A stretch of 64,000 nucleotides of DNA, from assembly GCF_057098645.1 (NCBI RefSeq), contig NZ_CM169472.1. One strand, written 5' to 3'. Of the stretch, positions 4,540-56,678 are shown one piece after another (position 1 is the stretch's first letter; every line of letters starts with the position of its first letter). A program made the position numbers and the translations under genes. The notes under the pieces were generated by a model, which did no database searches, was not told the origin of the DNA, and saw nothing but the letters and a program-made list of their open reading frames with translations.

Positions 4540-7335
4540 ATGGAGATAATTATGAGAAACCTCTGTTTCTTACTGACGTTAGTGGCAACTCTGTTGCTCC
4601 CCGGGCGGCTGATTGCCGCCGCCTTACCGCAGGATGAAAAGTTAATTACCGGACAACTGGACAATGGCTTGCGATATATGATTTATCCGCATGCTCATCC
4701 AAAGGATCAGGTAAATTTATGGCTGCAAATTCATACCGGTTCATTGCAGGAAGAAGACAATGAGCGCGGCGTGGCTCATTTTGTAGAACATATGATGTTT
4801 AACGGCACAAAAGCATGGCCGGGTAATAAAGTCATCGAAACATTTGAGTCAATGGGCCTGCGTTTTGGTCGCGATGTTAATGCCTATACCAGCTATGACG
4901 AAACGGTGTATCAGGTGAGTTTGCCGACTACGCAGAAACAAAATCTGCAACAAGTGATGGCAATCTTCAGTGAATGGAGTAATGCCGCAACCTTTGAAAA
5001 ACTCGAAGTAGACGCTGAACGTGGCGTAATTACTGAGGAATGGCGTGCCCATCAGGATGCGAAATGGCGCACCTCTCAGGCGCGCCGCCCTTTCCTGCTG
5101 GCTAATACCCGTAATTTAGACCGTGAACCTATCGGCCTGATGGATACTGTCGCCACGGTCACACCGGCACAATTGCGCCAATTTTATCAACGCTGGTATC
5201 AACCAAATAATATGACCTTTATCGTGGTTGGCGATATCGACAGTAAAGAAGCGCTGGCGCTGATAAAGGATAATTTAAGTAAGCTTCCGGCTAACAAAGC
5301 AGCTGAAAATCGCGTCTGGCCGACAAAAGCCGAAAATCACCTGCGCTTTAATATCATTAATGATAAAGAAAACCGGGTGAACGGCATCGCACTCTATTAT
5401 CGCCTGCCAATGGTACAAGTGAACGATGAGCAAAGCTTTATCGAACAAGCTGAATGGAGCATGTTAGTTCAGCTGTTCAATCAACGTCTGCAGGAACGCA
5501 TACAGTCGGGCGAGTTGAAGACTATTTCTGGCGGCACTGCGCGCAGCGTTAAAATTGCACCCGATTATCAGTCGCTGTTTTTCCGTGTAAATGCACGAGA
5601 CGATAATATGCAGGATGCTGCGAATGCATTAATGGCAGAGTTGGCAACCATTGATCAGCATGGTTTTTCTGCTGAAGAACTCGATGATGTCAAATCTACC
5701 CGCCTCACCTGGCTGAAAAATGCGGTTGATCAGCAAGCTGAACGTGATTTACGTATGCTGACCAGTCGCCTGGCATCCAGCTCATTAAATAATACGCCGT
5801 TCTTGTCGCCGGAAGAGACATATCAACTTTCGAAACGTCTGTGGCAGCAAATTACCGTGCAAAGTCTGACGGAAAAATGGCAGCAGTTAAGAAAGAACCA
5901 GGACGCATTTTGGGAGCAAATGGTAAACAATGAGGTTGCCGCCAATAAAGCATTGTCTCCTGCGGCTATCCTGGCGCTGGAAAAAGAGTACGCCAACAAA
6001 AAGCTGGCGGCTTACATCTTCCCTGGCAGAAATTTATCGTTAACAGTAGACGCTGACCCACAGGCGGAAATTAGCAGCAAAGAAACGCTGGCTGAGAATC
6101 TGACATCATTAACACTTTCCAATGGTGCCAGGGTTATTCTGGCAAAATCCGCGGGTGAAGAGCAAAAGCTACAAATTACTGCCGTATCGAATAAAGGCGA
6201 GTTAAGTTTCCCTGCGCAGCAAAAATCACTTATCGCGCTGGCAAATAAAGCAGTAAGCGGAAGCGGCGTTGGTGAACTCTCCTCTTCCAGCCTGAAACGC
6301 TGGAGTGCGGAAAACTCGGTAACCATGAGCAGTAAAGTCAGTGGCATGAATACATTGCTCTCCGTTAGCGCGCGGACTAATAACCCTGAACCTGGTTTCC
6401 AGTTGATTAACCAGCGAATCACCCACAGCACGATTAACGACAATATTTGGGCATCGCTACAAAATGCTCAAATTCAGGCGTTGAAAACGCTCGACCAGCG
6501 TCCAGCGGAGAAATTCGCCCAGCAGATGTATGAGACGCGCTATGCTGATGACCGCACGAAATTACTGCAAGAAAATCAGATTGCACAGTTTACTGCCGCA
6601 GATGCGCTGGCTGCCGATCGCCAGTTGTTTTCATCTCCAGCGGATATCACGTTTGTCATTGTCGGTAATGTCGCAGAAGACAAACTCGTGGCGTTAATTA
6701 CGCGTTACTTAGGCTCAATCAAACACTCTGATTCGCCATTAGCCGCAGGTAAACCATTAACTCGCGCGACGGACAACGCATCGGTTACTGTAAAAGAACA
6801 AAATGAACCTGTGGCACAGGTTTCACAGTGGAAGCGTTATGATTCCCGGACACCTGTTAATCTGGCGACGCGTATGGCGCTCGATGCTTTTAACGTCGCA
6901 CTAGCAAAAGATCTACGCGTTAATATTCGTGAACAGGCATCTGGGGCATACAGCGTTTCTTCTCGCCTCTCGGTTGATCCTCAGGCTAAAGATATCAGTC
7001 ATTTGCTGGCTTTTACTTGTCAACCAGAACGACATGATGAACTGTTAACGTTAGCGAATGAAGTGATGGTTAAGCGTCTGGCTAAAGGGATCAGTGAGCA
7101 AGAACTGAACGAATACCAGCAAAACGTTCAGCGCAGCCTCGATATCCAACAGCGTAGCGTTCAACAATTAGCGAACACTATTGTAAATAGTCTTATTCAA
7201 TATGACGATCCTGCAGCATGGACTGAGCAGGAGCAATTATTGAAACAAATGACGGTAGAGAATGTTAACACTGCCGTTAAACAATATCTTTCTCATCCGG
7301 TAAATACTTATACCGGAGTATTATTGCCAAAATAA
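4540..7335 (+). CDS. pqqL: Periplasmic M16-family zinc metallopeptidase PqqL
   Basis: 931 aa ORF with signal peptide and inverted zinc-binding motif HFVEH; an alternative start at 4552 (MRNLCF) has the better Shine-Dalgarno (GGAGA). Confidence 0.85.
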   Translation: MEIIMRNLCFLLTLVATLLLPGRLIAAALPQDEKLITGQLDNGLRYMIYPHAHPKDQVNLWLQIHTGSLQEEDNERGVAHFVEHMMFNGTKAWPGNKVIETFESMGLRFGRDVNAYTSYDETVYQVSLPTTQKQNLQQVMAIFSEWSNAATFEKLEVDAERGVITEEWRAHQDAKWRTSQARRPFLLANTRNLDREPIGLMDTVATVTPAQLRQFYQRWYQPNNMTFIVVGDIDSKEALALIKDNLSKLPANKAAENRVWPTKAENHLRFNIINDKENRVNGIALYYRLPMVQVNDEQSFIEQAEWSMLVQLFNQRLQERIQSGELKTISGGTARSVKIAPDYQSLFFRVNARDDNMQDAANALMAELATIDQHGFSAEELDDVKSTRLTWLKNAVDQQAERDLRMLTSRLASSSLNNTPFLSPEETYQLSKRLWQQITVQSLTEKWQQLRKNQDAFWEQMVNNEVAANKALSPAAILALEKEYANKKLAAYIFPGRNLSLTVDADPQAEISSKETLAENLTSLTLSNGARVILAKSAGEEQKLQITAVSNKGELSFPAQQKSLIALANKAVSGSGVGELSSSSLKRWSAENSVTMSSKVSGMNTLLSVSARTNNPEPGFQLINQRITHSTINDNIWASLQNAQIQALKTLDQRPAEKFAQQMYETRYADDRTKLLQENQIAQFTAADALAADRQLFSSPADITFVIVGNVAEDKLVALITRYLGSIKHSDSPLAAGKPLTRATDNASVTVKEQNEPVAQVSQWKRYDSRTPVNLATRMALDAFNVALAKDLRVNIREQASGAYSVSSRLSVDPQAKDISHLLAFTCQPERHDELLTLANEVMVKRLAKGISEQELNEYQQNVQRSLDIQQRSVQQLANTIVNSLIQYDDPAAWTEQEQLLKQMTVENVNTAVKQYLSHPVNTYTGVLLPK

Positions 7336-7597
7336 TAACAGCCCCGTCAACACATCGTTGGCGGGGATTTTAGCAATATTCGCTATTTTTATGTAATAAT
7401 TTTATAAATGCGTTCAAAATAATAACCAAGTACTAATAGTGATATTTTAAGGTCTGATTTTTACGTGATAATTCAGGAGGCACAGAAAGCGCATAAAAAT
7501 AACAACATAAAACACCTTACCACCACCCAAGAGCCCCCTACTATATTGTTTTTCAATGAAAAAATATTATTCACGCAATATCTCACGATAAATAACA

Positions 7598-7617
7598 TTA
7601 GGATTTTGTTATTTAAA
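7598..7617 (+). promoter_or_regulatory. GAD box (GadE binding site) in the gadBC promoter
   Basis: Exact 20-nt match TTAGGATTTTGTTATTTAAA about 80 nt upstream of the gadB start. Confidence 0.65.
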
Positions 7618-7696
7618 CACGAGTCCTTTGCACTTGCTTACTTTATCGATAAATCCTACTTTTTTAATGCGATCCAATCATTTTAAGGAGTTTAAA

Positions 7697-9097
7697 ATGG
7701 ATAAGAAGCAAGTAACGGATTTAAGGTCGGAACTACTCGATTCACGTTTTGGTGCGAAGTCTATTTCCACTATCGCAGAATCAAAACGTTTTCCGCTGCA
7801 CGAAATGCGCGACGATGTCGCATTTCAGATTATCAATGACGAATTATATCTTGATGGCAACGCTCGTCAGAACCTGGCCACTTTCTGCCAGACCTGGGAC
7901 GACGAAAATGTCCACAAGTTGATGGATTTATCCATTAACAAAAACTGGATCGACAAAGAAGAATATCCGCAATCTGCAGCCATCGACCTGCGTTGCGTAA
8001 ATATGGTTGCCGATCTGTGGCATGCGCCTGCGCCGAAAAATGGTCAGGCCGTTGGCACCAACACCATTGGTTCTTCCGAGGCCTGTATGCTCGGCGGGAT
8101 GGCGATGAAATGGCGTTGGCGCAAGCGTATGGAAGCTGCAGGCAAACCAACGGATAAACCAAACCTGGTGTGCGGTCCGGTGCAAATCTGCTGGCATAAA
8201 TTCGCCCGCTACTGGGATGTGGAGCTGCGTGAGATCCCTATGCGCCCCGGTCAGTTGTTTATGGACCCGAAACGCATGATTGAAGCCTGCGACGAAAACA
8301 CCATCGGCGTGGTGCCGACTTTCGGCGTGACCTACACCGGTAACTATGAGTTCCCGCAACCGCTGCACGATGCGCTGGATAAATTCCAGACCGACACCGG
8401 TATCGACATCGACATGCACATCGACGCCGCCAGCGGTGGCTTCCTGGCACCGTTCGTCGCCCCGGATATCGTCTGGGACTTCCGCCTGCCGCGTGTGAAA
8501 TCGATCAGTGCTTCAGGCCATAAATTCGGTCTGGCTCCGCTGGGCTGCGGCTGGGTTATCTGGCGTGATGAAGAAGCGCTGCCGCAGGAACTGGTGTTCA
8601 ACGTTGACTACCTCGGTGGTCAGATTGGTACTTTCGCCATCAACTTCTCCCGCCCGGCGGGTCAGGTGATTGCACAGTACTATGAATTCCTGCGCCTTGG
8701 TCGTGAAGGCTATACCAAAGTACAGAACGCCTCTTACCAGGTTGCCGCTTATCTGGCGGATGAAATCGCCAAACTGGGGCCGTATGAGTTCATCTGTACG
8801 GGTCGCCCGGACGAAGGCATCCCGGCGGTTTGCTTCAAACTGAAAGATGGTGAAGATCCGGGATACACCCTGTACGACCTCTCTGAACGTCTGCGTCTGC
8901 GCGGCTGGCAGGTTCCGGCCTTCACTCTCGGCGGTGAAGCCACCGACATCGTGGTGATGCGCATTATGTGTCGTCGCGGCTTCGAAATGGACTTTGCTGA
9001 ACTGTTGCTGGAAGACTACAAAGCCTCCCTGAAATATCTCAGCGATCACCCGAAACTGCAGGGTATTGCCCAACAGAACAGCTTTAAACATACCTGA
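7697..9097 (+). CDS. gadB: Glutamate decarboxylase beta
   Basis: 466 aa from [25 protein letters not shown]-dependent decarboxylase; ORF track extends upstream but this start matches the known N-terminus. Confidence 0.95.
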
Positions 9098-9252: not shown

Positions 9253-10788
9253 ATGGCTACATCAGTACAGACAGGTAAAGCTAAGCAGCTCACATTACTC
9301 GGATTCTTTGCCATAACGGCATCGATGGTAATGGCTGTTTATGAATACCCTACCTTCGCAACATCGGGCTTTTCATTAGTCTTCTTCCTGCTATTAGGCG
9401 GGATTTTATGGTTTATTCCCGTGGGACTTTGTGCTGCGGAAATGGCCACCGTCGACGGCTGGGAAGAAGGTGGTGTCTTCGCCTGGGTATCAAATACTCT
9501 GGGGCCGAGATGGGGATTTGCAGCGATCTCATTTGGCTATCTGCAAATCGCCATTGGTTTTATTCCGATGCTCTATTTCGTGTTAGGGGCACTCTCCTAC
9601 ATCCTGAAATGGCCAGCGCTGAATGAAGACCCCATTACCAAAACTATTGCAGCACTCATCATTCTTTGGGCGCTGGCATTAACGCAGTTTGGTGGCACGA
9701 AATACACGGCGCGAATTGCTAAAGTTGGCTTCTTCGCCGGTATCCTGTTACCTGCATTTATTTTGATCGCATTAGCGGCTATTTATCTGCACTCCGGTGC
9801 CCCCGTTGCTATCGAAATGGATTCGAAGACCTTCTTCCCTGACTTCTCTAAAGTGGGCACCCTGGTAGTATTTGTTGCCTTCATTTTGAGTTATATGGGC
9901 GTAGAAGCATCCGCAACCCACGTCAATGAAATGAGCAACCCAGGGCGCGACTATCCGTTGGCTATGTTACTGCTGATGGTGGCGGCAATCTGCTTAAGCT
10001 CTGTTGGTGGTTTGTCTATTGCGATGGTCATTCCGGGTAATGAAATCAACCTCTCCGCAGGGGTAATGCAAACCTTTACCGTTCTGATGTCCCATGTGGC
10101 ACCGGAAATTGAGTGGACGGTTCGCGTGATCTCCGCACTGCTGTTGCTGGGTGTTCTGGCGGAAATCGCCTCCTGGATTGTTGGTCCTTCTCGCGGGATG
10201 TATGTCACAGCGCAGAAAAACCTGCTGCCAGCGGCATTCGCTAAAATGAACAAAAATGGCGTACCGGTAACGCTGGTCATTTCGCAGCTGGTGATTACTT
10301 CTATCGCGTTGATCATCCTCACCAATACCGGTGGCGGTAACAACATGTCCTTCCTGATCGCACTGGCGCTGACGGTGGTGATTTATCTGTGTGCTTATTT
10401 CATGCTGTTTATTGGCTACATTGTGTTGGTTCTTAAACATCCTGACTTAAAACGCACATTTAATATCCCTGGTGGTAAAGGGGTGAAACTGGTCGTGGCT
10501 ATTGTCGGTCTGCTGACTTCAATTATGGCGTTTATTGTTTCCTTCCTGCCGCCGGATAATATCCAGGGTGACTCTACCGATATGTATGTTGAATTACTGG
10601 TCGTTAGTTTCCTGGTGGTACTTGCCCTGCCCTTTATTCTCTATGCTGTTCATGATCGTAAAGGCAAAGCGAATACCGGCGTCACTCTGGAGCCAATCAA
10701 CAGTAAGAACGCACCAAAAGGTCACTTCTTCCTGCACCCGCGTGCACGTTCACCACACTATATTGTGATGAATGACAAGAAACACTAA
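9253..10788 (+). CDS. gadC: Glutamate:GABA antiporter
   Basis: 511 aa polytopic membrane protein downstream of gadB. Confidence 0.95.
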
Positions 10789-22674: not shown

Positions 22675-23565
22675 TTATGCGTCATAGGTTTTTTTTAACG
22701 TTTCCATCAACGCCTGCGCCGCAGTAGAAAGCTTATGGTGTGACGAACGCAGTACGCCTACTCGTCGCTCAATCACTGGATTATCCAGTTCCAGACACAC
22801 TGCGCCCAGTTCGCTCATCTGCCTGCGGCACAGCGCAGGCACAGCGCTTCCTCCCAAACCGTTTGCCACCAGCCGCCCAACCGTAACCAGTTGATGGCTT
22901 TCCAGCGCCACTTCCAGTTGCGTTCCACTTTGTGCCAACTGCTCCTCCAGCATCAACCTGACGGCTGACGGTCGCTGGAGGGTGATAAAATCGAGCGTCA
23001 GCAAATCCCGCCAACTCACGCGTTGCCGATTTGCCAGTCGTGAATCGGCTGGAACAATAGCGACAAACCGATCCACGCCCAGTGGGGTAAAATGCACATG
23101 GCCGCAATAGTCAGGTTCAAAGGCAATACCCATCTCCACACGCCCTTCGCTCACCATTTCGATCACCTGCTCATTCACCACATCGTGCACGGTGACATTA
23201 ATCCCTGAATAACAATCGCGGAAGGTTTTCAGCACCGGAGGCAGAACGTTGGCTGCAAATGACGGCATCGCTGCCACCGAGACTTTTCCCCGCCTGAGCG
23301 TGAATCGCTGACGCATGGCCTCCTCAGTGTTATCCCAGTCAGCCAGCAAAGGCCGTGCCATCGACAATAGCGTTTCCCCCTCCTGGGTTAATGTCACTTT
23401 TCGCGTAGTACGCAGCAGTAAAGCGCCCCCTAAGGCATCTTCCAGTCCTTTAATGGTAAGACTTAGCGCAGGCTGCGACATATTCAGCCGTTCACTGGCA
23501 TGGGCAAAGTTCAGAGTGTGAGCTACCGCTAAAAACGCGCGTAACTGTTTGATGCTCATTTTCAT
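22675..23565 (-). CDS. LysR-family transcriptional regulator, divergent from the catabolic operon
   Basis: 296 aa; N-terminal HTH (IKQLRAFLAVAHTLNFAHASERLNMSQPALS). Confidence 0.85.
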   Translation of the reverse strand: MKMSIKQLRAFLAVAHTLNFAHASERLNMSQPALSLTIKGLEDALGGALLLRTTRKVTLTQEGETLLSMARPLLADWDNTEEAMRQRFTLRRGKVSVAAMPSFAANVLPPVLKTFRDCYSGINVTVHDVVNEQVIEMVSEGRVEMGIAFEPDYCGHVHFTPLGVDRFVAIVPADSRLANRQRVSWRDLLTLDFITLQRPSAVRLMLEEQLAQSGTQLEVALESHQLVTVGRLVANGLGGSAVPALCRRQMSELGAVCLELDNPVIERRVGVLRSSHHKLSTAAQALMETLKKTYDA

Positions 23566-23706
23566 CTGGCACTCCGTTAACCTACTGAATACATTTAATT
23601 AACATTATATTGATAAATAATACAAATGAATGAGTCACAAATTTAAAATTAACAAATCATTTTTTGCCCTTAATGATGTTGAAAAGGACAACTGGAGGGC
23701 AACTGT

Positions 23707-24414
23707 ATGGCTGGGTTGGATAAACGGGTCGCTACGTATCACGAGGCACTTGAAGGACTTACCAATGAGATGACGATTCTGGCAGGAGGTTTTGGCCTGT
23801 GCGGCATCCCGGAGAATCTGATTGCTGAAGTTCGCCACCGTGGAGTAACCGGATTAACGGTGGTTTCCAATAACTGTGGCGTAGATGGTTTTGGACTGGG
23901 TGTACTACTGGAAAGCCGACAGATCCGTAAAGTCGTCGCTTCTTATGTTGGCGAGAATGCTTTGTTTGAAAAACAGGTGCTTAACGGCGAACTGGAGGCG
24001 ATTCTCACACCACAAGGAACCCTGGCAGAACAACTGCGCGCAGGCGGCGCGGGTATCCCGGCGTTCTTTACTGCCACCGGTTACGGTACTCCCGTTGCCG
24101 AAGGGAAAGAAGTCCGCGAATTCAACGGTCGCCCGTACATCATGGAACAGGCTATCACCGGTGATTTTGCCCTGGTCAAAGGCTGGAAAGCCGACTGGTA
24201 CGGCAACGTGATTTATCGTCATACCGCGCAAAACTTCAACCCACTGATGGCGGCTGCCGGAAAAATCACCGTGGTGGAAGTGGAAGAAATAGTGCCACCT
24301 GGTGAACTTGATCCTGCCGCTATCCATACCCCGGGGATTTTTGTTAATCGCGTCATTCAGGGGCAATTTGAAAAACGCATTGAACAACGCACCCTTAGCC
24401 GCAAAGGAGCCTGA
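23707..24414 (+). CDS. 3-oxoacid (acetoacetate) CoA-transferase subunit A
   Basis: 235 aa AtoD/ScoA-like sequence. Confidence 0.85.
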
Positions 24415-24416
24415 CC

Positions 24417-25073
24417 ATGTTAACCCGTGAACAAATGGCGATGCGAGTCGCCCGCGAATTGCGCGATGGCTATTACGTCAATCTCGGCATTGGTATCCCG
24501 ACCCTGGTGGCAAACTACATTCCTGACGGGATGGATGTGATGTTGCAGTCAGAAAACGGTTTGCTGGGAATGGGCGCATTTCCTACGGAAGACGAACTGG
24601 ACGCCGACATGATTAATGCCGGTAAACAAACCGTTACCGCGCGGAAAGGCGCGGCAATTTTCGATTCGGCGCAATCATTCGCCATGATCCGTGGCGGTCA
24701 TGTGGATCTGACTGTACTTGGCGCATTTGAAGTGGATGTGAATGGCAACATTGCCTCATGGATGATCCCCGGCAAGATGGTTAAAGGCATGGGCGGTGCC
24801 ATGGATCTGGTTGCCGGTGCCGAGAATATTATTGTGGTAATGACCCACGCCTCCAAATCCGGCGAATCCAAACTGCTTCCTGACTGTACCCTTCCGTTGA
24901 CCGGCGCCGGATGCATCAAACGCGTCTTAACCGACCTTGCTCTGCTGGAAATTGCTGACGGAGCTTTCATTCTGCGCGAGCGCGCGCCGGGAATCAGCGT
25001 TGCGGAAATCATCGCCAAAACCGCCGGTAAGTTGTTTGTGCCGGAACATGTCCCGGAAATGCAATTCAACTGA
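24417..25073 (+). CDS. 3-oxoacid (acetoacetate) CoA-transferase subunit B
   Basis: 218 aa AtoA/ScoB-like; conserved SENG glutamate motif. Confidence 0.85.
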   Translation: MLTREQMAMRVARELRDGYYVNLGIGIPTLVANYIPDGMDVMLQSENGLLGMGAFPTEDELDADMINAGKQTVTARKGAAIFDSAQSFAMIRGGHVDLTVLGAFEVDVNGNIASWMIPGKMVKGMGGAMDLVAGAENIIVVMTHASKSGESKLLPDCTLPLTGAGCIKRVLTDLALLEIADGAFILRERAPGISVAEIIAKTAGKLFVPEHVPEMQFN

Positions 25074-25082
25074 GGAATCACC

Positions 25083-26288
25083 ATGCAGGACGTTGTTATT
25101 GTTGCCGCTACGCGCACACCGATTGGCTGTTTTCATGGCGCTCTCGCCCCACTTTCTGCGGTTGATCTCGGTGCTGCCACCATCCGTTCGTTGCTGGAGA
25201 AAACCGCACTTGCAGCAGAACAGATCGACGAAGTGATTTTTGGTCAGGTCCTGACCGCCGGAAGCGGACAAAACCCGGCACGACAATCGGCGCTCAAAGC
25301 CGGGTTAAGCCACAATACACCCGCCGTTACCATCAACCTGGTATGTGGTTCCGGTCTGAAAGCCGTACACCAGGCAGTGCAGGCGATCCGTTGCGGTGAT
25401 GCACAGATAATTATCGCAGGTGGCCAGGAAAGCATGAGCAACGCGCCCTATTTTATTGATGGCGCGCGGGCAGGTTTACGCCTCGGGCATACCAGCATGA
25501 AAGACAGCGTGGTTCATGACGGACTATGGGATGCTTTCAATGATTACCACATGGGCATTACTGCAGAAAACCTGGCGCAAAAATATGCCATCAGTCGCGA
25601 GCGACAGGACACATTCGCGCTACGTTCTCAGCAAAAAGCCGCTGCCGCAATGGAAGCCGGGCGCTTTGCAGACGAAATTACTCCGGTGAGCGTACCACAA
25701 GGTAAAAAACCACCACGCTGGGTAAATACCGACGAACAACCACGTTCCGGGACGCAACTGGAAAAACTAGCGCAACTGAAACCGGCCTTTCTTCCGGGGG
25801 CGGGAAGCGTCACCGCAGGAAATGCCTCTTCCATTAATGATGGTGCCGCCGCAGTCATGTTAATGCGCGCCAGCAAAGCTGCTGAACTGGGCCTCCCAGT
25901 GCTGGCTCGGGTGGCAGGTTATGCCGTTTCTGGCGTCGATCCTGCCTTTATGGGCATTGGTCCGGTCGCCGCTACCCGCGAATGTCTTAAGCGTTGCGGA
26001 TGGACGCTGGAAGATATTGATCTTATTGAAGCCAACGAGGCTTTCGCAGCGCAGGCGCTGGCCGTTGGCGACGAACTGAACTGGGATTGCGACAAAGTGA
26101 ATGTTAACGGCGGCGCAATCGCACTTGGGCATCCTATTGGCGCTTCCGGTTGCCGCATTCTGGTCACTCTCATTTATGAAATGGCGCGACGTAATGCGCA
26201 AAAAGGGCTGGCGACGCTGTGCGTCGGTGGCGGTCAGGGCGTGGCGCTGACACTGGAAAGAACCACAGAAGAACACCATGCAAACTGA
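25083..26288 (+). CDS. Acetyl-CoA C-acetyltransferase (thiolase II)
   Basis: 401 aa; typical thiolase motifs including C-terminal GGGQG. Confidence 0.9.
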
Positions 26289-27201
26289 ACAATTTGCGGT
26301 ACTGGGCGCCGGATTGATGGGCGTGGGGATTGCCACTCATTTCGCCCGCTTTGGTCATGATATCTGGCTGTACGATACCGAGCAGAGCCGGATTGCAGAA
26401 ATCCACGTAGTTGCAGGCGGAATTCTTGATGAGCTGATTAGCTGCGAACAGTTTACTGCCCCGGAAAAAGAGAATGTGCTTAAACGTCTGCACGGCACGA
26501 CTTCTCTTGCAGACATCGCCGACTCGCAACTACTGATTGAGGCGATCCCGGAGCGACTTGAACTAAAACACGCATTATATACCGAGCTTGAAACGCTTAT
26601 TTCTCCTGAGGCCATTGTCGCCAGCAATACCAGCGGTCTGCCGCCCGATGATCTGGCCGCGAAAATGCGCTACCCGCAACGACTGCTGATCGCCCATTTC
26701 TGGCATCCGCCGCACTTCATTCCACTTGTGGAGATTATCCCCGGCAGCGTTACCGAGCCAAAGCATTTGCACTGGCTGCAACACTTGCTTGTGTCACTGC
26801 AACTGGAAGCAGTGTTGCTGGATCGCGCTGCGCCAGGATTTGTCGGCAACCGTCTGCAATTTGCACTGTTGCGTGAAGCCCTGCATATCGTAAAAAGCGG
26901 CATCGCCAGTGCAGAAGTGGTGGATCAGGTGATGCGCGCCTCGCTTGGGCGACGTTATGCCATGGTCGGCCCGCTGGAGGCCGCCGACATGACCGGACTT
27001 TCGACGGTGCAGGATATTTGTCGCCATCTGCTCCCTGAACTAGCGACTGGCAGCGACATGATGTCATTAGTTGCCGAAAAAGTGGAACGTGGAGACATCG
27101 GCGTACGTAGCGGTCAGGGATTTTACTGCTGGGATGAATCGCGGAAGCAGTACATCCAGCAGAGTCGGGAACATCAACTTCGCTTCGCCCTTAAACCATA
27201 A
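26278..27201 (+). CDS. NAD-dependent 3-hydroxyacyl-CoA dehydrogenase family protein
   Basis: 307 aa; Rossmann motif [12 protein letters not shown] at N-terminus. Confidence 0.75.
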
Positions 27202-27246
27202 CTTCTCTCGCTGTACCCACTATAACAACGATATTGAGGAGTCCCG

Positions 27247-28638
27247 ATGAGTGTATTAATCGCCCTTGCCGCGCTTGGGCTGCTAATGCTGGCAGCCTAT
27301 CGCGGATACAGCGTTATCCTTTTTGCCCCCATCGCAGCATTAGGCGCTGTTCTTGTCACCGATCCGGGGGCCGTTGGCCCAGCATTTACCGGCCTGTTCA
27401 TGGAAAAAATGGTCGGCTTCGTGAAATTGTACTTCCCGGTGTTTCTGCTCGGGGCCGTGTTCGGAAAACTGATTGAACTTTCAGGATTTTCTCGTTCGAT
27501 TGTCGCTGCTGCAATCAACATTCTCGGCCGGCGGCATGCGATTCCGGTGATTGTGCTGGTATGTGCATTACTCACCTATGGCGGAGTGTCGCTGTTTGTG
27601 GTGGCATTTGCCGTTTATCCGTTCGCGGCTGAACTGTTCCGCCAGAGTAACATCCCAAAACGACTTATACCGGCAACGGTGGCCCTGGGGGCATTCTCTT
27701 TTACTATGGACGCTCTGCCCGGCACGCCACAAATTCAGAACATTATTCCTACCAGTTTCTTTGGCACCAACGCCTGGGCCGCGCCGTGGCTGGGGCTTAT
27801 TGGTTCACTGTTTATCATTGCCGTCGGGCTTATCTATCTGGAGCGGCAGCGTCGTAAAGCGCAGGCAAAAAATGAAGGTTACGGCACAGAGTTACTTAAT
27901 GAACCTGAAACACCAGATAACATCAATTTACCGAACCCACTCATTGCGATTTCACCATTGATTCTGGTGGGGCTGTTGAACTTGTTGTTTACCTGGTGGA
28001 TCCCTGTTTGGTACGGTGCGAGCCACCAACTGGAGTTGCCGGGACTTGCCGCCCCGATTACCACAGATGTCGCCAAAATCACCGCAATCTGGGCCGTCGA
28101 AGCTGCGCTCATTGCCGGAATTTTGCTGGTAGTGATTTTTGGATATCGCAATATTCATGGAAGACTGGCAGAAGGAAGCCGTACAGCGGTGGGCGGCGCA
28201 ATTCTGGCTGCGATGAACACCGCCTCAGAATATGGCTTCGGTGCGGTTATCGCCGCCCTACCCGGTTTTCTGGTGCTCTCAAAGGCGCTGGCCGCCATTC
28301 CTGATCCATTACTCAACGAAGCCATCAGCATCACCACACTTGCCGGAATTACCGGTTCAGCGTCCGGCGGGATGAGTATTGCTCTTGCGGCTATGTCCGA
28401 CACTTTTATTGCCGCTGCGCACGCTGCCAATATTCCACTGGAAGTTTTTCACCGCGTGGCATCTATGGCCAGTGGCGGCATGGATACATTGCCCCATAAC
28501 GGCGCTGTGATCACCCTGCTGGCAATTACTGGGCTGAGTCACCGTCAGGCTTACGGCGGCATCTTCGCAATTACGATCATTAAAAGTCTGGCCGTGCTGT
28601 TTATCATCGGCGTGTACTACACCACCGGCATTGTCTAA
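27247..28638 (+). CDS. Polytopic permease, GntP-like (candidate 3-hydroxybutyrate/acetoacetate transporter)
   Basis: 463 aa hydrophobic protein; substrate inferred from operon context only. Confidence 0.6.
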   Translation: MSVLIALAALGLLMLAAYRGYSVILFAPIAALGAVLVTDPGAVGPAFTGLFMEKMVGFVKLYFPVFLLGAVFGKLIELSGFSRSIVAAAINILGRRHAIPVIVLVCALLTYGGVSLFVVAFAVYPFAAELFRQSNIPKRLIPATVALGAFSFTMDALPGTPQIQNIIPTSFFGTNAWAAPWLGLIGSLFIIAVGLIYLERQRRKAQAKNEGYGTELLNEPETPDNINLPNPLIAISPLILVGLLNLLFTWWIPVWYGASHQLELPGLAAPITTDVAKITAIWAVEAALIAGILLVVIFGYRNIHGRLAEGSRTAVGGAILAAMNTASEYGFGAVIAALPGFLVLSKALAAIPDPLLNEAISITTLAGITGSASGGMSIALAAMSDTFIAAAHAANIPLEVFHRVASMASGGMDTLPHNGAVITLLAITGLSHRQAYGGIFAITIIKSLAVLFIIGVYYTTGIV

Positions 28639-28649
28639 GGAAAATCATC

Positions 28650-29420
28650 ATGAATTTACAAGGTAAAACTGCGCTGGTGACGGGGTCCACCAGCGGTATC
28701 GGACTCGGTATTGCTCAGACACTGGCAAACGCTGGCGCGCAAGTGATCCTCAACGGCTTCGGTGATGTTGACGCGGCAATCAATGCGGTTTCTCGTATGG
28801 GTAAAACGCCTGGCTATCATGAGGCAGACCTCAGCGATGAATCGCAAATTATCAACATGGTGGCCTACGCACGGCGGGAATTTGGCGGTGTGGACATTCT
28901 GGTGAATAACGCCGGGATCCAGTATGTCTCCCCGGTTGAATCTTTCCCTGTAGAAAAATGGAACGCCATTATCGCTATCAATCTCTCTTCTGTCTTTCAC
29001 ACCACGCGTCTGGCACTGCCAGAAATGCGCACTCGTAACTGGGGTCGGATCATTAACATTGCCTCTGTGCATGGGCTGGTAGCGTCGAAAGACAAATCAG
29101 CTTATGTTGCGGCAAAACATGGCGTGGTGGGACTCACAAAGACCATTGCTCTGGAAACTGCGCAGACGGGTATTACCTGCAACGCGCTCTGCCCTGGCTG
29201 GGTGCTGACGCCGCTGGTACAACAGCAGATTGATAAGCGCATTGCGCAAGGCGAAGATGCGGAAAGCGCGCGTGACGCCTTACTGGCAGAAAAACAGCCT
29301 TCTCGTGAATTTGTGACTCCGCAACAACTGGGTGAACTGGCGCTGTTTCTCTGTTCGGATGCGGCAGCACAAGTGCGTGGGGTGGCGTGGAATATGGATG
29401 GCGGTTGGGTAGCGCAGTAA
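28650..29420 (+). CDS. Short-chain dehydrogenase, 3-hydroxybutyrate dehydrogenase-like
   Basis: 256 aa SDR; TGSTSGIG cofactor motif and YVAAKHG catalytic motif. Confidence 0.8.
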   Translation: MNLQGKTALVTGSTSGIGLGIAQTLANAGAQVILNGFGDVDAAINAVSRMGKTPGYHEADLSDESQIINMVAYARREFGGVDILVNNAGIQYVSPVESFPVEKWNAIIAINLSSVFHTTRLALPEMRTRNWGRIINIASVHGLVASKDKSAYVAAKHGVVGLTKTIALETAQTGITCNALCPGWVLTPLVQQQIDKRIAQGEDAESARDALLAEKQPSREFVTPQQLGELALFLCSDAAAQVRGVAWNMDGGWVAQ

Positions 29421-56246: not shown

Positions 56247-56678
56247 TCAAAAAAAATCATCAGCACAATTAATTTTTAAATTTAAAAAATAAAGAAAAAT
56301 ATTATTGATTGATTTGAGTGTAAACCACTTGTCATTAACAAATTTATAGCTAGATGATTTTATAAAATAATAATTATCTCCTGGTATAAAGGCATACATA
56401 TCATTTAAGGTTATACTCAACAAAAAACTACGACCTGGTTTAATAGTATTCCAGCGTTCAGGATTCGTATTAATTTCAAAAGGACATGAACCACCTAAGT
56501 AGTCCAACGTGATATTCCCAGAGTTGATCCTGAATGGTTTTTTGCATATCGCATCATATTCATCTCCTTTTCCATCTTTTACTTTCATAGGTAGATAATA
56601 TTTAGAAAAAAAATACGTGGTAGAGCTATTGTTAGTAAAGGTTATGTTAGCAAAAATCCTGTTATTTTTTTTACTCAT
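56247..56678 (-). CDS. Hypothetical protein (AT-rich; probably continues by frameshift into ORF 56084..56266)
   Basis: 143 aa ORF; downstream 60 aa ORF in another frame begins 19 nt before its stop. Confidence 0.4.
   Translation of the reverse strand: MSKKNNRIFANITFTNNSSTTYFFSKYYLPMKVKDGKGDEYDAICKKPFRINSGNITLDYLGGSCPFEINTNPERWNTIKPGRSFLLSITLNDMYAFIPGDNYYFIKSSSYKFVNDKWFTLKSINNIFLYFLNLKINCADDFF

Follow-up and report, generated by a model that had tools for sequence, protein, structure and literature searches.

The GAD box upstream of gadB in an Escherichia coli chromosome segment matches the K-12 gadBC promoter element in sequence and position

The gadA and gadBC promoters of E. coli K-12 are the closest described counterparts of the site reported here. 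Their GAD box is a 20-bp element centred 63 bp 5′ of the gadA and gadBC transcription starts and lying 16 bp 5′ of the -35 hexamer (PMC2887963; Castanie-Cornet et al. 2010); its published sequence, as quoted in PMC4918353 and credited to Castanie-Cornet & Foster 2001, is TTAGGAttTTgTTATTTAAa. Binding to this element has been dissected on gadA, where purified GadE alone at concentrations up to 10-20 µM gave neither a footprint nor a shift, RcsB plus GadE produced a footprint from -50 to -76, and mixed-tag gel shifts indicated equal amounts of RcsB and GadE with the apparent binding constant put at about 10 nM (PMC2887963). The same study attributed earlier GadE-only binding to RcsB contaminating the GadE preparations, and placed a further RcsB box just 5′ of the -10 hexamer, the gadB copy being the same except for C in place of G at its left end (PMC2887963). 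Farther upstream, ChIP-exo has yielded a motif for GadX and GadW, AKGKCTGWTWTTWWYMYVAK (PMC4918353).

A second point of reference is the family of RcsB and RcsAB boxes, the sites of FixJ/NarL-family response regulators. The GAD box resembles them in that RcsB makes up one subunit of the pair that binds it, and differs in that it requires GadE as a partner and activates transcription. The RcsB box at the -10 differs from the GAD box in turn, since RcsB occupies it without a partner and at low affinity, to repressive effect.

The window, that is, the whole 64-kb stretch of DNA that was analysed, carries the gene order yddA-yddB-pqqL-gadB-gadC-digH-dosC, as in K-12, where it lies on the opposite strand. 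The elements of the gadBC promoter and the genes that it serves are listed below, with promoter positions counted from the predicted start at 7670; the resulting coordinate map is a by-product of the analysis.

7450..7469, plus strand: predicted GadX/GadW motif match, AGGTCTGATTTTTACGTGAT, at about -220 to -201; 19 of 20 positions agree with AKGKCTGWTWTTWWYMYVAK
7533..7545, plus strand: polymorphic patch defined by alignment, at -137 to -125; GCCCCCTACTATA in the window and ATTTCATATTGTA in K-12
7598..7617, plus strand: GAD box, TTAGGATTTTGTTATTTAAA, at -72 to -53
7634..7639, plus strand: -35 hexamer TTGCTT, 16 bp 3′ of the box; the same in K-12 gadB
7647..7659 (limits approximate), plus strand: predicted RcsB (repression) box, CGATAAATCCTAC, directly 5′ of the -10 and overlapping it
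7657..7662, plus strand: -10 hexamer TACTTT, separated by a 17-bp spacer from the -35; invariant in 12 Escherichia gadA/gadB promoters
7670, plus strand: transcription start (+1), placed by homology, giving a 27-nt leader
7685..7690, plus strand: Shine-Dalgarno sequence AAGGAG, 6 nt ahead of the ATG; unchanged across the 12 gad promoters that were aligned
7697..9097, plus strand: gadB, glutamate decarboxylase B, 466 aa, intact; 465 of 466 residues identical to K-12 GadB, the sole change being A232T
9253..10788, plus strand: gadC, glutamate:GABA antiporter, 511 aa, intact; 510 of 511 residues identical to K-12 GadC

The 20-mer at 7598-7617 has the same sequence as the published box and agrees at 20 of 20 positions with the boxes of both K-12 gadB and K-12 gadA. 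It is the only match to TTAGGATTTTGTTATTTAAA on either strand of the window, even when up to three mismatches are allowed, and dinucleotide-preserving shuffles give a chance expectation of 0.02 matches per window at three mismatches. Its end lies 79 nt before the gadB ATG, a gap of 16 bp separates it from the -35, and its centre falls at -62.5 when counted from the predicted +1. The original prediction, that an intact 20-nt GAD box occupies 7598-7617 on this strand within an AT-rich region upstream of gadB, is thus borne out in both parts: the match is exact, and the 361-nt pqqL-gadB intergenic region (7336-7696) has an A+T content of 68%, compared with 51% in the window overall. Sequence, promoter position (with the start placed by homology) and a downstream glutamate decarboxylase gene all agree with those that define a GAD box. 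Judged from sequence and context, the site is almost certainly the canonical GAD box already described for the E. coli gadBC promoter, in its canonical place.

The comparison with characterised promoters, which the original prediction had proposed as its check, was made by taking the regions upstream of gadB and gadA from K-12 MG1655 at their coordinates and aligning them with the window. The K-12 gadBC promoter is identical to that of the window, without gaps, from 7577 (21 nt 5′ of the box) to the ATG, a stretch covering the -35, the RcsB box, the -10, the leader and the Shine-Dalgarno sequence, and the neighbouring genes are likewise pqqL, gadB and gadC. The differences are confined to 13 substitutions between -94 and -244, all at least 22 nt 5′ of the box, and to an IS5-like element within yddA, 6.5 kb from the gadB promoter. 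K-12 gadA shares the box (20/20), the 79 nt to the ATG, the 16 bp to a TTGCTT -35, an RcsB box (GATAAATCCTAC) and a TACTTT -10, but its 16-bp spacer and upstream flank are unrelated in sequence to those of gadB, its RcsB box begins with G where that of gadB begins with C, its GadX/GadW motif lies about 90 bp nearer the box, and its genomic location is the acid fitness island. A different distance between motif and promoter had been named as the observation that would count against the prediction; since the spacing equals that of the characterised K-12 gadB and gadA promoters, with the centre at about -63, the comparison came out in its favour.

Downstream of the box, the 17-bp spacer between the -35 and the -10 contains CGATAAATCC, present in both the window and K-12 gadB, whereas the alignment places GGATAAATCC at the corresponding position of gadA; this equals the published difference between the gadA and gadB copies of the RcsB box. 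The position of the start can be cross-checked against the gadB primers named -173 and +77 in PMC3050690, which map to 7498 and 7746 in the window and put +1 at 7670 or 7671. A generic sigma-70 promoter scan of 7300-7750 returned nothing on the plus strand because the gadB -10, TACTTT, is too weak (a 3/6 match), as expected for an activator-dependent promoter, and its silence says nothing against the gadB promoter. Searched with Rfam at gathering thresholds, the pqqL-gadB intergenic region contained no RNA family; the sole hit was the SECIS element of fdnG. The program-made list of open reading frames opens the gadB frame at an in-frame upstream TTG (7628), while the gadB ATG is at 7697; the annotation of E. 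coli O145 str. RM9872 places gadB at the same coordinates as in the window. Compared with K-12, neither the two genes gadB and gadC nor any part of the core promoter bears a sign of decay.

Conservation was examined at several depths. Of 5426 complete E. coli genomes, 5405 contain the 385-nt region corresponding to 7336-7720, with identities of 91-100%. The 99-nt segment from the box to the ATG is carried by 5402 of the 5426; its identity is 99% or higher in 3583 of 5405 complete E. coli records, with almost all of the remainder at 95-99%. The gadBC core promoter is wild type, as in nearly all E. coli, and the value of the result lies mainly in annotation, with no new mechanism. Eight E. coli lineages were then picked across the identity range, having been retrieved by similarity of the wider region and not by the box. 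Their upstream regions are 91-98% identical to that of the window, and the box together with the ten bases preceding it is invariant in all eight, while positions -52 and -51, just 3′ of the box, vary among them, and the same holds for many positions from -83 to -333.

Twelve Escherichia gad promoters gave a similar picture, with invariant positions amounting to 1 of 16 in the spacer and 2 of 60 upstream; the constancy of the box itself in this set is partly circular because some of the loci were retrieved by an exact box match. The comparison of the paralogues gadA and gadB provides a cleaner footprint at the level of alignment, all 20 box bases being shared while the spacer and flank have diverged. 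A scan of 298 Gb of species-representative genomes gave 11 exact copies of the 20-mer. Of these, eight lie 79-80 nt 5′ of gadA- or gadB-type genes in E. coli, E. albertii, E. whittamii and Escherichia sp. E1V33, with diverged flanks, and this placement before gad genes is the non-circular part of the cross-species evidence. The remaining three lie in unrelated metagenome-assembled genomes without a gad gene, and are consistent with chance at this database size.

Rare natural disruptions of the gadB promoter were encountered in two strains. E. coli MSI001 has lost the GAD box to an IS5-like element that sits between pqqL and gadB. In E. coli 4/4, an IS1 ends about 25 nt before the gadB ATG, and the far side of the element is occupied by hipA, not pqqL. 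Neither type of disruption is seen in the window, and the two strains would serve as natural tests of GAD-box dependence.

How the box would work can be read from the K-12 literature. An RcsB/GadE heterodimer would, by homology with K-12, bind the 20-bp box at -72 to -53 and, once bound, would activate a promoter whose -35 (TTGCTT) and -10 (TACTTT) are weak. The activated promoter would drive gadB and gadC, and thereby supply glutamate-dependent acid resistance with its decarboxylase and its glutamate/GABA antiporter. Under high RcsB activity, RcsB alone would be expected to occupy the box beside the -10 and bring about repression, and GadX and GadW would act farther upstream. Carrying the gadA binding data over to gadB depends on the identity of the box, and the window box at -72 to -53 falls within the published -50 to -76 footprint of RcsB plus GadE. 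For this strain, we infer the transcription start, the protein binding and the induction by acid and in stationary phase from the published K-12 work.

Two readings of the 20-mer itself compete with that of a canonical RcsB/GadE site. According to one, it is a functionless chance match in A+T-rich DNA, for which one may point to the 68% A+T of the region and to the three exact chance copies among 298 Gb; against it stand the very low shuffle expectation for the window even with three mismatches, a position and context identical to those of K-12 gadB and gadA, and the retention of the box while its flanks diverge. This reading has next to no probability, having already been refuted by the shuffle expectation, the K-12 alignment, the conservation across lineages and the placement before gad genes. 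The other accepts the box but supposes that a GadE homodimer binds it alone, with RcsB absent from the complex. Earlier reports cited in PMC2887963 described GadE preparations that bound by themselves, and ChIP-exo finds GadE at gad promoters (PMC4918353), but that method cannot separate the partners; the failure of GadE alone to bind at up to 10-20 µM, and the appearance of a footprint only with RcsB plus GadE, both obtained on gadA (PMC2887963), make binding by GadE alone very unlikely. The original prediction had described a GadE-binding box of acid-resistance promoters; its identification as the canonical GAD box holds, and the naming of GadE alone was incomplete, as the binding species is the RcsB/GadE heterodimer (PMC2887963). 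Because the box is an RcsB/GadE site, rcsB needs checking alongside gadE. The GadE ChIP-exo motif as printed in PMC4918353, TTARGAWWWWAAATA, was also tried; it misses the GAD box at up to two mismatches, it matches six other places in the window, a count consistent with chance (3.3 expected), and it was set aside.

By itself, a canonical RcsB/GadE site does not decide if the strain resists acid. The further claim that the box implies intact regulation of glutamate-dependent acid resistance went too far, as the cis site is necessary, not sufficient, and the trans-acting genes lie outside the window: none of gadE, gadX, gadW, rcsB, rpoS, evgAS and ydeO is found within the 64 kb, so that intact regulation cannot be concluded from it. 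A correct but idle box, with regulation faulty through a defect in gadE, rcsB, gadX/W, rpoS, evgAS or ydeO, would be compatible with the regulators lying elsewhere. Mobile-element activity near the locus, in the form of the IS5-like element in yddA 6.5 kb upstream, points the same way, as does the natural occurrence of insertions that destroy gad regulation, exemplified by the gadB promoters of MSI001 and 4/4. Loss-of-function alleles of rpoS are, moreover, common among E. coli isolates. Against such a defect, gadB, gadC and the core promoter of the window are undecayed, and the annotation of a close relative gives indirect support for gadE, gadX, gadW and gadA. Positions 1135-63996 of the window align with E. 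coli O145 str. RM9872 (NZ_CP028379.1) at 99.949% identity over 62.9 kb (blastn), and the two are separated by 26 substitutions, four small indels and the IS5-like element; RM9872 is the closest complete genome, a close relative and not the source strain. In the acid fitness island annotation of RM9872, which is not the source strain, gadE, gadX, gadW and gadA carry no pseudogene flags; its GadE is identical to that of K-12 at 175 of 175 residues, and its gadA has an exact GAD box upstream. A regulatory defect in trans is thus regarded as unlikely in the strain studied; it opposes the inference of intact regulation and leaves the identity of the site as the canonical GAD box untouched.

Upstream of the conserved core, the predicted GadX/GadW motif match at 7450-7469 is the only one in the window, where 0.02 would be expected; K-12 gadB carries the identical sequence, and gadA has a related copy upstream. 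The patch at 7533-7545 holds 7 of the 13 differences between the window and K-12, reading GCCCCC in the window where K-12 has ATTTCA, so that a G+C-rich stretch interrupts an A+T-rich tract. This patch varies in all eight lineages sampled; no other part of the region is as polymorphic across E. coli, and the window has a single private base within it, 7535 (T to C). There is a slight chance, smaller than that of a defect in trans, that the lineage-specific upstream changes, chiefly those at -137 to -125, alter H-NS silencing or GadX/GadW action at gadBC. If they did, this O145/O157-like lineage would express gadBC at a threshold different from that of K-12 despite an identical core promoter.

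Several observations elsewhere in the window and in its relative were recorded in passing. The window starts inside an IS5-like element (ISKpn26/IS5 family; 1-1138), with a transposase ORF of 326 aa on the minus strand (86-1066) and a terminal repeat, ggaacttgttcgcaccttcc, that ends at 1134 and is followed by the target site CTAA; the insertion disrupts yddA in the window strain, while yddA is intact in RM9872 and K-12. Between ddpF and osmC, at 22675-29420, lies a seven-gene cluster encoding a LysR regulator, CoA-transferase subunits A and B, an acetyl-CoA acetyltransferase, a 3-hydroxyacyl-CoA dehydrogenase, a GntP-family permease and a 3-hydroxybutyrate dehydrogenase; K-12 has ddpF and osmC side by side, and the cluster therefore represents an insertion or deletion difference between lineages.

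Further along, a SECIS_3 element (Rfam, 84 bits) was found inside fdnG at 38288-38346 on the minus strand, as expected for formate dehydrogenase-N. At 40301-41398 there is a full-length OmpC-like porin ORF of 365 aa where K-12 has only the short yddL; relative to RM9872 it shows a 3-bp in-frame deletion at 40315, and it adjoins a leucine-rich-repeat gene (a yddK homologue, about 42.9-44.1 kb) that is longer than that of K-12. In place of K-12 rhsE/ydcD/ydcC, a decayed region at about 55.5-60.5 kb contains an ISAs1 transposase fragment, small peptidase-like ORFs, a C-terminally truncated vgrG/tssI and a PAAR gene; single-base indels at 56665, 56883 and 57190 set the window apart from RM9872 here. 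Outside the window, RM9872 has a ghrB with an internal stop, and at 4275402-4276637 (positions 5403-6638 of the retrieved locus L013) its bcsQ and bcsE are annotated as abutting truncated pseudogenes, an arrangement that suggests a deletion in the cellulose synthesis locus.
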